In this document: in pieces, positions 2,685-64,000 of the stretch | Layout: every line of letters begins with the position of its first letter | Position numbering within the stretch: the stretch's first letter is position 1 | From: Seison nebaliae | Taxonomy: Eukaryota | DNA: 64,000 nt | Direction of reading: 5' to 3' | NCBI GenBank assembly: GCA_023231475.1 | Contig: JALJEE010000349.1 | Span: forward strand, 62,001 to 126,000 | Position numbers and translations under genes: made by a program | Notes under the pieces: generated by a model | Database searches by the model: none | What the model was told of the DNA's origin: nothing | The model's input: only the letters and a program-made list of their open reading frames with translations

Positions 2685-5600
2685 ATGTCTTTGATTGTTA
2701 AAATCATTAGTGCGACTAATGTCCCTAATAAGGAAAAATTTGGCCAACCGGACCCATTCGTTTACATTGAGTTTCAAGGAATCAAGAAAAAAACTAGTGT
2801 TAAAAAGGAAGAACTCAATCCCGTGTGGGATGAGGTTAATTTTTTGGTAACTAACGAATAAGTTGCATATATACATATTGATTTTTCAAGGATATTAAAT
2901 TCGATTTGAAAGGAATTCCTTTACAAACAAATAATCAACTTGATATTCATTTGAAAGACTATGAACGATTTGGTGCAAATAAGTTGGAAATAATTTGAAC
3001 AATATTATTGTCAGTTAAAATCTCCAACCATTAGATTACTTGGCAAATGTACAGTTCCATTACGTGATGTAATCGAGCAAGCGTCATCTCAATATGAATT
3101 GGAATTGAAAGATCCTTCCGATACTCCATTACCGGTATAAAATTTATTCGAATTTTCAAATATTTAATGTTTCATTAGCAATCGAAATTGACTATAAAAT
3201 TAATATATGAAGCACCGGATGTCGATACAGAGGGTGGCGATATCGGATCAGGTTTATTTTACATTTTACCATCTTCTTCCGTAAGTGAATTAATTATTAT
3301 TAATTAATTAATTTCCTTATTAATTAATAAAAAAATTGGAATGAAAATCAAAAATCTCCCAATTTTCTATGTGAGTAAACATTCTATCCATTTCTGGTGA
3401 AATCGTTTTATAATTTTTTTTGAAATATAGTCAAAAAATTCGTTAAATAATTCGTATATTATTAATTGCATTTCAATTATTGAAGATAAAAAAAAATATT
3501 ATGGAAAAAATAAACGAAATGTTAACTATGGTGAAACAGCATTGAACCCGGTGAATCCTGAGGGAGGTCTAATGGATGAGCAACCTGATTCAGATGACGA
3601 CGGAGGTAATCGTTCAAAAGACATGGGTGATGTTCTCACTAGTCGAAGAAAGGAACGATCCAGTAAACAACAGGACTTTCAAGTTTTCAACCAATTCGTT
3701 TAATGGAAGAATCGTTATGATATTAATATCAATTACTGATTTAGATTCGAATAAAAATTATCGAAGCTCGACAACTAGAAGGAGGAAATATTCATCCAGT
3801 TTGTCGTGTCAAATGTCACAATCAGTCAAGGCAAACACGAATTAAACGGTCAACATCTAATCCGATATGGAGTGAAATATTTTTCTTCAACTTCTCCCAA
3901 ATATCGGAACAAGAATTATTTGATGAATTTCTCGAATTTGAAGTTTCCCACAATAAGTGAATAATTCTCTTAATTAATTGTTATTCAATAAAAGGTATAT
4001 AATTCACGGCAATTACGATCTGATGCATATATCGGTGGATTTAAATGTGATATTGGTTATGTAGCGGATGAACCGAAACATGCCGTTATTAGGAAATGGT
4101 TATTGTTAAGTAATTCTGATGATGCAATAGGAGGAGTGAAAGGTTACCTTAAAGCAACTGTGGTAATTTTGGAAGCTGATATGGAACCACCAGTTATTCT
4201 ATTAAATTGTCACTAAAATAACAAATCCTCCTCTAGGTGGGAGCAACGGCTGATGTTGTAGATGATGATACTGATGATATTGAATCCAATCTCTTAAAAC
4301 CAGCAGGAATGACATTAAAACCGGCTCAATTTATATTAAGATTATTTAAAGCTGAAGATCTGCCAAGAAGTTATTTTTTTTAAATTTCATTGAACATTCT
4401 AAACTTCGGTTTTAGTGGACTCCGAAGTGTTTGAAGGAGTAAAGAAATTATTCAGTAAAAGCGATGATAAAAAGGAATTAGTGGATCCATACGTTGTGAT
4501 GACATTCGCTGGGAAATCAGTTAAATTCATTTTGAATAACTATAAAAATTTTAATGTATTCTTCAAATAAAGATTCAATCGAAGATCGCTTATTGCGATG
4601 CAAATCCTGAATTTAATCAAGAATTAAAATTGGGATTGAAAGTATTTTAATAATTCTATTGCTTGTATTTCAGTTGTAATATTCTTCAAAAAATAGTTTC
4701 CGTCAATGTGTGAGAAGATTCGATTGCAAATAAAAGATTGGTTAGTAACGGATTGAAGAGACTTTTTAAAGTTGAAATAAAATTTATTAAAAATTAAAAG
4801 GGATAGATATTCTGCTGATGATGAGATTGCTACAGATTTTTTGCGAATTTCGCAAATATCTGAACTAAAGCAGAATGGTAAAAAATTCTAAAAACTTATC
4901 TTATGATTTGCTAAAACATTTTTTCTATATCTTTTCTCATATCTGTTCTGGTCTTTGCTCTTTGATTAACGTTGTTATTTTTATTATTTTCAGGGATCGT
5001 TTGTCTGCTAATGACAACGTTGCTGTTACATATCTGAAATTGCCACAAATATCCTCGAATGGATATGATGATGATGCAGGTGAATTATGATTTTATCTTT
5101 TATACTTCTGCTATATGAGTTTCATTGTTAAAACTGCATTTTTCAATTATTCGAATTTATTCAAGGATTCTTACCAACATTTGGTCCGTGCTTCATCAAT
5201 CTCTATGGTTCTCCAAGGGAATATTCCGAATTGCCAGATCAATACGATGACATGAATTTAGGAAAGGTTAGGGAGTTTCTTAAAAATTTAGATGAAACCC
5301 TTTTAACAAAATTCTTAAATTCTTCAATAACATTGTCGATTTCATTTTCATTATTATCTAGTACCGAAATACAAGAGAAATTAAAGACAAAATATATTTA
5401 GCGCATGTGATCCATTATTCTCTTTCTCCTCTCTTTTTGCTTCATAATCTTATTACTCATTTTGTGCTAGCTTCCTTATTTAGTGAATTAGTGACTTCTT
5501 TGTAAACACAATTTTCAGATTTATAGTGGATAAAAACGAAAAAATATAGATATACAAAGTGTAACGCACATTAACTATTTCTCGCCTGTGATCTCCATTC

Positions 5601-8600
5601 TGAATTTCCCGCACCTCCGAAAAAAATTTGTTTCACCTTTACATATAAAATGTAAATTCGTAAAGATCATTTTTAATGAAAATAACCATAGTTTATTAAC
5701 TTTCTTTACACTAGTACTAAAAAATTAATGTTATCCAATAAAACTTGTTGCTTGAAAAAAGAAAAAGAAGAATAAGAAGAATTTATAATTTCTTTTTTTA
5801 TTAAAAACTCCCAATTTTTTAGGGTGAAGGTGTTGCATATAGAGGAAGAATGTTGGTAGAACTTACAACGGATATTGGACCAGCATCACCTGATCCAATA
5901 GTCGATATCGCTCAATCGGATATGATTCGAGTTCAGTCATTTTTATCAAGAAGAAAATTCAAGTTGCACGCTGCATTTCTCGATGCAACAATGATTATGG
6001 AAAAAGATTCCGCTTTGGAATTTGAAGTTCTCATTTTCATCTACAAGATTTAATCAAGACCAATAATTATATTAATCGATAATTAATCTTAGGTGAGTAT
6101 TGGCAACTATGGAAATAAATTGGATGAATCTCTACTACCATGTTCATCAACAACACAACCGTCAAACGCAGTTTTTGATGGTTGTTCTTATTATTTCTTA
6201 CCTTGGGGTGACACCAAGCCTTGTGTGCAAGTGGAAAGTCATTGGGAAGATGTGACTTATCGATTAAAGGCACTGAATATGCTCCAAGCAATTATCGATC
6301 GATTAAATCGAAATTTAAGAGAAGTCGAAATTATGATGAAATCTAAAGTTGCAATCAACAAAGTTTTATTTCAATAGTCGTATAAAGTTAAATTAAATGA
6401 CTTGAAAGATCGCTGGAAAAATTATAGAAATGTTGGACACATTAATTCAAGATTGTAAATGCGATTTCCCTCCTGGAGAAAAACCGACAGAATATACCGT
6501 AAATGATTTGGATAAATTACTTTACAATCGACGTAAAGTTGAAATAGAAAAGTTATTGAAGAAAATGAAAAATTTGAGATTGAATGCAACTGATCCAAAC
6601 GACGTTGTGAGAGAAGTTCGCATCTTTACTTAATTCATACAATTTAATACATTATTCTTTGCTAAAAAATCTTTTTAAAAATATTCTGCTTGATCTACTA
6701 ATCAATTTAATTGATTTCAGGTACCATTCATGGTAAGCTAATTTTCATCATTTATCGCATGTCTTCTTATCATTATTATGTGTCATTTCTCCTTTGATGA
6801 TTGTTCTCAATTAATTTGAAAACGAAATTAACATTATTATGTTTTTAATTTCAGTGCGAAAACTTCTCTTCATTGTTGGAGAATTTGTGTATCGAACCTC
6901 AAAATTCGATACCTGATATCATCATTTGGTTGATTACTGGAAGTAAACGAATTGCATATTATCGCATTCCCGCTAACGAACTACTTTATTCTTCTGACGA
7001 GAAAGCACGAGGAAAATACTGTGGAAAATTACAAAATATTTTCCTGAAAGTTTTTGTTTTGTTTCAAAACTATCATCATTCTATCCATTTATCTTTTAAT
7101 AGTGGCCGGGTAAGGACAGTGAAGCTAAAGATAAAAAATATATTATTCCCGGACAACTGCGTATGAAGTTGTGGTTCGGTTTAGAGAAAGATGAAGAGGA
7201 ATGGGTGAATATGCAAAAAGATGGCGAAGTTTCTGTTTTTGCTGAAACTTACGAAAATGAGGTGAATTTATTTGGGAAATGGACGAATCATGGACCAACA
7301 ATGACGAGACCATCTTGGTCCGATGTGACAGGAGCAGTTGACTTAAAAAAAGACAACTTCAATTTACCATATGGATGGAATTGGAAGAGTGACTGGTATA
7401 TATCACCCGAATCATCTTTGTTGTATGACAAGGATTCGGGTCATCGAACATATATGGAAGAGGTTTATGAAAATGAATATCGAAAAATTCCTGGAGCTCG
7501 ATTTAATGGCGATGAATCATATTATACCGATATTGTTAAAATTTAAGTTCTTCATTTAATAATGTGAATTCTTTACAGAAGGGAGATAATATGCCATCGT
7601 TGGATAATGTTCCGTTGCCTGATGGTTGGGAGTGGATGGATGAATGGGAAATTGATGTTAATCGAGCCGTCGATGAAAATGGTTGGGAATATTGTGTGGA
7701 AGCAACATTATCTGGTTGGACTCCGACGCAAAAAACTTTTCATCTTTGTCGACGTCGTCGATGGTTAAGGAAACGTCAATTGCAAGATGAAGAATTACGA
7801 TCTCAGAAGAAAAATGAATTAGCATTAGCGATGAAGGAAGGATGGGAATATGCTCCATTATTCAATATGAAATTTCATGCTAAAGAGAAATCGTTAGATA
7901 TGGTTCGACGTCGTCGGTGGCATCGCCAAATGATTGCCGAAAGAAGAAATGCATCGTCTGTTTTTGCTATCGAGAAGAAGATTGAACAAAAACCGAAATC
8001 ATTTGACGAAGGAGATGAAGAAGGAAGGGAGAGTGCTCCGTTAGTGCAAGAAGCAGATTTTCATGGATCAGACGCAATGGCGTTAAATGCACCACGATTA
8101 TTTTTATCTTTCAAAAAATCTCATACATTCCAATTGAGAGTATATATCTTCCAAGTTACTACGAGTTTGTTTGAAATAAATAATCTCATTCGAATAATTT
8201 AGGCGAGAGAATTATTCGCTGCCGATTCAGATTCATTATCAGATCCATATTGTCAGATCTCGTTTCTAAATCAATCTCAAAAAACGGAAGTCTGTCAGAA
8301 GAATCTATGTCCGATGTGGGATCAAACTTTAATATTTGAGTCAATCGAAATTCATGGAAATTTGGAAGAATTGGTAATGCATCCTCCAACAATCGTCGTG
8401 GAAATGTTTGATCATGATAATTATGTTAATAGACAACTTTTTTAAATATTTTCCTTCATCCTCCTTGTTCAATAGGGAAAACCTGATTTCCTAGGTCGAG
8501 TTCTAATTACACCTCTCGTAAAAGTTGGAGAAGATGTGAATAATGCGAGTGGGTCAGTCGCCAAATTGCAATGGCACAACATTGCTCGAGGAACTAGGAA

Positions 8601-63499: not shown

Positions 63500-64000
63500 A
63501 TGGAAAAAAAGGTTGATGATGAACTGCTTTATGATAGGCAGATCCGTCTTTGGGGAGCAACAGCACAAGAACAGTTTATAATTTATTATTTATTTATTAT
63601 ATAAATTTATTGGATTAGTTTGAGATCATCATCAATATTAGTCGTAGGTTTCTCCAACAGTATTGTGGAGTTTATGAAGAATATGGTTTTAAGTGGAGTT
63701 CGTCGAATTACATTGATTTGGCAAGAGGAAAAAGTTATATTTTATTTAGAGTTGATCTCTCATTTCATTGAAAGATTCAGATAAAAAGTGAAAGATATTT
63801 CTTTTCGTCTAGTCATCGAAATGAAAGTGAATTAAAGAAGGCACTTTTGGAATCGATGAAACGATTAAATAATAAAGTATTAGTTAATGTCCTTAATGAA
63901 AATGGAGATGATATCGATCAACGAAATGGATTTTTAAGTAAAACTCACAATATTCTATTATTAAACGAGAAGAGACGTTCCTCCATCTCATATTGGGAAG
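63500..64000 (+). CDS. SAE1: E1-like enzyme, most likely SUMO-activating enzyme subunit 1 (Aos1); runs off the window end
   Basis: MEKKVDDELLYDRQIRLWGATAQE, an intron, then LRSSSILVVG...EFMKNMVLSGVRRITL. Not represented in the ORF track. Confidence 0.8.

Follow-up and report, generated by a model that had tools for sequence, protein, structure and literature searches.

GTT donors in the introns of a 64-kb window of the Seison nebaliae genome point to a probable shift in donor recognition

We analysed the splice donors of a 64-kb window of Seison nebaliae DNA, 'the window' being the whole stretch, from which all counts below were taken and in which introns are known from genomic DNA alone. Seison, a small marine animal placed in Syndermata, is epizoic and belongs to Rotifera-Acanthocephala; its genome measures ~46 Mb and its genes are compact, according to the available part of PMC8351084. 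About nine in ten of the introns that we placed by protein similarity begin with GTT, and it is likely that the splicing machinery of Seison has been retuned. Metazoan U2 donors typically read GTRAG (R, purine), with position +3 read by the 5′ end of the U1 small nuclear RNA (snRNA).

Spliced genes and their donors

The skew towards T at +3 is present on both strands and across ten gene models, which are listed here with their introns (numbers in brackets name the donors).

2685..12844, plus strand: ferlin (myoferlin/dysferlin type), an open model of 2029 amino acids with 31 introns, 27 GTT and 4 GTA (3135, 4642, 4878, 12136); 25 introns placed by the aligner (for 11263 the acceptor was shifted manually to 11371), 4 mapped by hand and 2 ambiguous (3252, 8638)
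16057..17933, minus strand: tandem-C2 protein SNEBB_006738; 5 of 5 donors GTT (17926, 17062, 16781, 16537, 16391); deposited protein P0251 reproduced exactly
20877..22162, minus strand: rabphilin-like N-terminal exons of FYVE type; 4 GTT donors (22042, 21792, 21522 and the ambiguous 21409); hand-mapped open frame, Pfam FYVE_2 in one exon
31682..32769, plus strand: glycogenin-like gene; 3 GTT donors (31819, 32042, 32247); hand-mapped open frame, weak Glyco_transf_8 match in exon 4 only
34199..35610, plus strand: bleomycin-hydrolase-like peptidase; 1 GTT intron, 35342-35394, whose junction is spanned by Pfam Peptidase_C1_2 (2-370, then 373-438)
37262..42025, plus strand: kinesin (KIF12-like) SNEBB_006742; 11 introns, 10 GTT and 1 GTC (41145); deposited protein P0241 matched exactly, with 8 of the introns placed by profile as well
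43406..44037, plus strand: small secreted cysteine-rich protein; 1 GTT intron, 43794-43840; hand-mapped open frame
44090..44967 (ends approximate), minus strand: endonuclease III-like gene (NTH1); 3 GTT donors (44823, 44609, 44303); hand-mapped, Pfam HhH-GPD 1-51, then 54-107, over intron 2
52571..52616, plus strand: GTT intron close to the end of a gene that we take to be CAMTA-like; hand-mapped open frame
63500..63999, plus strand: start of a presumably E1-like gene; 2 GTT introns, 63574-63618 and 63734-63774; hand-mapped open frame, no fitting Pfam match

Introns were placed with a spliced profile aligner that opens an intron at any GT for one flat penalty and is blind to +3. The ferlin profile was built from 20 non-Seison ferlins chosen out of 120 hits, and the kinesin profile from 7 non-Seison kinesins. 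The set used for counting, 59 introns, pools aligner placements (33), deposited gene models and hand mapping; 18 introns were hand-mapped through open frames and motifs known for the families, with 2 junctions bridged by a continuous Pfam match and several exons that have no Pfam match, and 8 rest solely on deposited models, the support for which is not known. Before counting we dropped aligner intron 7960, which has a margin of 0.1 and lies in a divergent stretch of exon, and kinesin intron 41604 (unconserved tail, in disagreement with the deposited model), and swapped intron 8642 for 8638. Left out of the 59 are introns 3252, 8638 and 21409, all GTT with ambiguous placement, and five putative alternative GTA/GTG donors.

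The 59 donors comprise 54 GTT, 4 GTA, 1 GTC and no GTG (GTT in 43/48 on the plus and 11/11 on the minus strand). GTT makes up 57/62 when the ambiguous introns are added, and 54/64 when the putative alternative donors are added instead. Excision of these GT-AG introns restores the reading frame in the models, and two deposited Seison nebaliae proteins (SNEBB_006742, KAI3388916.1; SNEBB_006738, KAI3388912.1) are matched residue for residue by spliced models. The first-pass annotation had given 28 GTT among 37 ferlin donors and about 32 of 33 in the other spliced genes, on both strands. Our own counts come close, with 27/31 in ferlin (27/36 with the five putative alternative-exon donors) and 30/31 in the other genes, and all seven ferlin donor hexamers that it quoted lie where it had placed them.

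The aligner found 27 ferlin introns, 24 GTT and 3 GTA. Forbidding GTT costs the ferlin alignment 424 bits, compared with 62 bits for forbidding GTA and GTG together; when donors were banned singly, the margin was at least 8 bits for 21 of 27, of which 19 were GTT. In the kinesin run 8 of 9 introns were identical to the deposited model, 5 of these 8 with a margin of at least 8 bits. Together, 26 of the 35 aligner introns (27 ferlin, 8 kinesin) reach that margin, and 23 of the 26 begin with GTT, as do 29 of the 33 aligner-supported introns within the 59.

The earlier view that base composition alone would not favour T over A so strongly is upheld. T makes up 47.5% of intron interiors (P=7e-13 against 54/59 at +3), and A at +3 (4/59) lies under its 31.5% share there. 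GTT accounts for 39% of GTN window-wide and for 56% within introns (P=4e-10 for the +3T skew against the latter), and for only 42 (28%) of 149 decoys, GT sites close to the true donors. The skew is, on these modelled junctions, confirmed as a real feature; its mechanism we infer.

Donor anatomy, putative alternative exons and intron age

The introns are short (median 50 nt), and 47 of 59 fall within the 43-66 nt that had been reported for most of them. The first-pass annotation had also seen little consensus at +4 to +6. This holds for +4 (A 25, T 20 of 59) and +6, which are at background, but not for +5, where G occurs in 17/59 as opposed to 6.8% in intron interiors (P=3e-7); an A-G-T tail is retained. 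The +5G is concentrated in long introns, with 7/9 of those >80 nt and 10/50 of the others (P=0.001). The top donor hexamer is GTTAGT (7/59), with GTTAG in 10/59. The tail keeps to the normal register, with GTTNGT in 10/59 and GTTNNGT in 0/59; +6G occurs in 5/59. GTTTGT, the strict Entamoeba hexamer, is found once in 59 and is not the rule. Intron definition by length, another earlier suggestion, may explain the weak +4 to +6 positions of short introns, but it does not account for +3T, as 8 of 9 introns >80 nt also begin with GTT.

The GTRAG consensus preceded by G at −1 does not describe these donors: the +3 base is a purine in 4/59 and −1 is G in 16/59. The last exon base is A in 33, G in 16, T in 9 and C in 1 of 59, whereas the composition of the ferlin coding sequence, taken phase by phase, predicts 21 A. 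Among phase-0 Lys, Glu and Gln codons at junctions, 19/21 end in A, compared with 81% in the gene (P=0.40), so that −1A may reflect synonymous drift. Since 2/21 of these codons end in G, compared with 19% in the ferlin coding sequence, the exon-side −1G has drifted to background. −1G is associated with GTTAG (6/10 versus 10/49 of the others, P=0.018) and not with +5G overall (P=0.52).

Acceptors read TAG in 26, CAG in 19 and AAG in 14 of 59. No branch-point motif stood above shuffles in the 59 introns (22/59 versus 23.8), and none of their donor hexamers is of the minor (U12-type) RTATCCTT form, the consensus given in Table 1 of PMC5387049.

The ferlin gene has nine GTA/GTG donors. Six lie directly after a putative alternative exon or belong to a putative alternative 5′ site, and the frame is open in each case; the remaining three start short, seemingly constitutive introns. 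The putative exons are the following.

4801-4877 and 4994-5079, plus strand: putative mutually exclusive exon pair, donors GTAAAA (4878) and GTGAAT (5080); both open, peptides similar
6721..6732, plus strand: putative 12-nt micro-exon, donor GTAAGC at 6733; frame predicted open if included
8843..8952, plus strand: putative cassette exon, donor GTAAAT at 8953; frame predicted open with upstream donor 8642
10117..10233, plus strand: putative cassette exon, donor GTAAGT at 10234; frame predicted open if included

Ferlin may also have two alternative last exons within 12483-12844, one ending GEVVEKLFK (acceptor near 12547) and the other ending in ten residues after 12811.

We estimated the age of the ferlin introns from isoform indels between vertebrate ferlins of the same species, which gave 25 boundary clusters. 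Seven of the 30 in-range Seison junctions lie within one residue of such a boundary (1.3 expected, P=0.0004), and 6 of the 7 are GTT. It is thus likely that old introns changed their third base, that is, that ancestral introns were converted to GTT. An all-against-all comparison of 62 introns revealed no sequence family; its only hits were short AT-rich stretches of 12-48 nt (best E 2e-4). The insufficiency of composition and the ancestral intron positions, above chance, together make it likely that donor recognition itself has shifted, and to this extent the earlier proposal of a rewired recognition system stands.

Other features of the window are as follows. On the minus strand at 16057-22162 the deposited model covers the C2 domains only; the FYVE-type exons (20877-22162) and a 538-residue open reading frame (18433-20049) may share one rabphilin-like gene with it. 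Run depth is halved at 16-18 kb and near zero at 18-20 kb (16009-20000), which may be a filter effect. A multi-copy fragment resembling a long interspersed nuclear element (LINE) reverse transcriptase lies at 13800-15700 on the minus strand (Pfam RVT_1, depth 10-20x single copy). A neuropeptide precursor at 56962-57339 (plus strand) contains four peptides that are flanked by dibasic sites, have YWG or FWG as their last residues and are predicted to be Wamides. Intronless amid the intron-dense genes are paraplegin (60512-62695, minus), calmodulin (42407-42921, plus), a protein kinase (45150-46229, minus) and a potassium channel in so far as it is visible (1-1143, plus); a paralog of the channel sits directly upstream on the same run contig. 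In a paraplegin tree, made by a quick method only, the window sequence took a very long branch next to bdelloids; this may be long-branch attraction, and the tree was set aside. Low-depth contigs (depth 3.2) matching 367-786 and 6082-6371 at 85-88% identity represent a paralog or a second lineage and are usable for +3T conservation. None of 119 pattern matches in a search for relatives of bdelloid kinesin in viral contigs was confirmed.

What might read the third intron base

U1 hardly varies in its recognition sequence; by the established pairing, U1 position 6 faces donor +3. We tentatively favour a change of this position from U to A, with GUUAGU as the optimum, as the cause of the GTT donors, a change of the kind known from Entamoeba. 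An A at position 6 would pair with +3U and make GUUAGU a perfect partner, after which the old GTR donors would be converted one site at a time. In introns of 40-60 nt, GUU together with intron definition would suffice, and long introns would retain GUUAG. GUA and GUG donors would now be weak sites, which would explain their place at putative alternative exons. This reading is consistent with GTTAGT being the top hexamer, with +4A/+5G being stronger in long introns and with the normal register of the tail. We scored true donors and the 149 decoys by the number of Watson-Crick pairs that each forms with the 11-nt U1 end of metagenome locus L012; the area under the curve (AUC) was 0.80 with the position-6 variant. 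Standard U1 gave 0.66 in the normal register and 0.76 in the +1 register. The value of 0.80 is not independent evidence, because the gain follows from the +3T skew itself.

A number of points weigh against a changed U1. Standard U1 shifted by one base performs nearly as well, and free duplex energies separate donors poorly under either U1 (AUC 0.53 and 0.56). An Rfam scan of the window returned 0 RNA genes, hence no U1. The +5G tail could be an imprint of U6 and not of U1. Standard U1 is kept in most lineages with atypical donors (yeasts, Giardia, Trichomonas, Thecamonas and Mamiellales) according to the available portion of bioRxiv 10.1101/2022.06.08.495308, and all 236 U1 candidates are standard in the accessible part of eLife 91997. 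About half of the intron sample comes from one gene, ferlin, and all of it from a single window. The clustering of GTA/GTG donors at alternative exons is putative, these exons being drawn from open frames only, and GTA also starts the three seemingly constitutive introns (3135, 4642, 12136), with little or no help from +4 to +6.

Metagenome loci with standard U1 ends numbered 129, of which 20 were Rfam-annotated, and none of them was assignable to a rotifer. Five loci on eukaryote contigs (L001, L012, L030, L056, L068) pack U1, U2, U4, U5, U3, 5S rRNA and tRNA genes, some also with U6 or signal recognition particle RNA, into 3-5 kb.

It is conceivable, though on balance unlikely, that U1 is standard and has a minor role in very short introns, and that selection for +3U comes at a later step, through an altered U6 ACAGAGA region or through proteins at the donor (U1C, LUC7, SNRNP27K, PRP8). 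The loss of −1G, the AAG acceptors and the absence of a branch-point motif above shuffles suggest a broad relaxation, and in Saccharomycotina, as far as the accessible text of eLife 91997 goes, a switch at +4 is correlated with METTL16 and SNRNP27K, and neither U1 nor U6 varies. However, this protein precedent concerns +4 and not +3, and Entamoeba, the sole printed case of +3U that we found, keeps U6 ACAGA and has changed its U1, in the available portion of the preprint (bioRxiv 10.1101/2022.06.08.495308).

We also consider it rather unlikely that standard U1 pairs in a register shifted by one base (A−1/U10, G+1/C9, U+3/A7), with U6 fixing the cut site and leaving +5G. The excess of −1A over expectation and the rise in AUC of standard U1 in the +1 register would fit such pairing. 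However, the tail that it predicts is absent (+6G and GTTNNGT at the counts given above), −2 is A (37/59) and not C, and −1A may be due to synonymous drift.

That selection at +3 was lost and a T-rich mutation bias filled the site is very improbable. Intron interiors are T-rich, GTT is the majority of their GTN, and +4 and +6 are at background, yet 92% T at +3 is far above both backgrounds and A is depleted, which contradicts this explanation here. Misplacement of donors, or bias from hand mapping or from gene models trained on the same species, has still less to recommend it: placements come from DNA, more than a third of them hand-mapped or from deposited models only, and 9 of the 35 aligner introns have margins <8 bits, but the +3-blind aligner with non-Seison profiles gives the same skew, at high margins too, and again picks the same 25 donors when +3 is recoded to A or G. 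That the introns are recent copies of a GTT-starting mobile element (introner), as their uniform lengths might suggest, is scarcely credible given the lack of a sequence family and the 7/30 ferlin positions at vertebrate boundaries.

Known systems and significance

The closest likeness is to Entamoeba, where the available portion of bioRxiv 10.1101/2022.06.08.495308 gives GUUUGU in 88-90% of introns and a U1 with ACAAAC (ACGUAC in Mastigamoeba). Both share near-universal +3U in major-type GT-AG introns (54/59 in Seison). Entamoeba is, however, intron-poor with a strict GUUUGU(U), whereas Seison is intron-dense (31 ferlin and 11 kinesin introns in this window), with only +3 fixed, A or T at +4, +5G in 29%, ancestral positions, putative alternative exons and a U1 change that is proposed from the donors. 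Saccharomycotina likewise show a lineage-wide change at one donor position (accessible parts of eLife 91997, PMC10581693); theirs is from +4A to +4U, with U6 methylation, METTL16/SNRNP27K and invariant U1 and U6, whereas Seison has no +4U preference. Globodera, also an animal lineage, departs from the usual donor frequencies through an excess of GC-AG, which affects +2 in 3.5% of introns and leaves the AAGT tail intact (PMC4901422, part available).

In human, the four GUU classes listed in the part of PMC5387049 Table 1 available to us make up 3,604 of 215,155 introns (1.7%), and guuagu is the commonest, so the standard spliceosome can use guuagu. The difference lies in 1.7% as opposed to 54/59, and in the shifted tail, which is absent in Seison. 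Shifted-register donors were reportedly described by Roca and Krainer in 2009.

Our literature search, which took in the available parts of PMC8351084, PMC10125929, PMC11347168, PMC4901422 and PMC10639083, with most subscription papers outside it, turned up no account of the donor sequences of Seison or of rotifers. Seison is listed in the supplement of PMC10639083 and unnamed in the main text as available, so its genome appears to have already passed through an intron survey. PMC5387049, in the part seen, puts +3A at <1% in Drosophila and C. elegans; this conflicts with what is otherwise known of these animals and was given no weight here, although it would bear on novelty if it were true for them.

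Taken as a whole, the picture of Seison as an animal with U1 rewritten from ACUUAC to ACUAAC, its ancestral introns converted genome-wide to GUU at high intron density and GUAAGU now a weak donor that marks alternative exons, is possible but somewhat doubtful. The printed cases of donor/U1 co-change that we found are amoebozoans, and the Entamoeba preprint (bioRxiv 10.1101/2022.06.08.495308), in its available portion, discusses a co-evolution model in which intron loss comes first, so that few substrates need a joint change. An intron-rich animal with nearly all donors moved from R to U at +3 would directly test that model. The GTT donors matter for gene prediction in Seison and possibly in its relatives, and, if U1 was indeed rewritten at high intron density, donor/U1 co-evolution would no longer be tied to intron loss.

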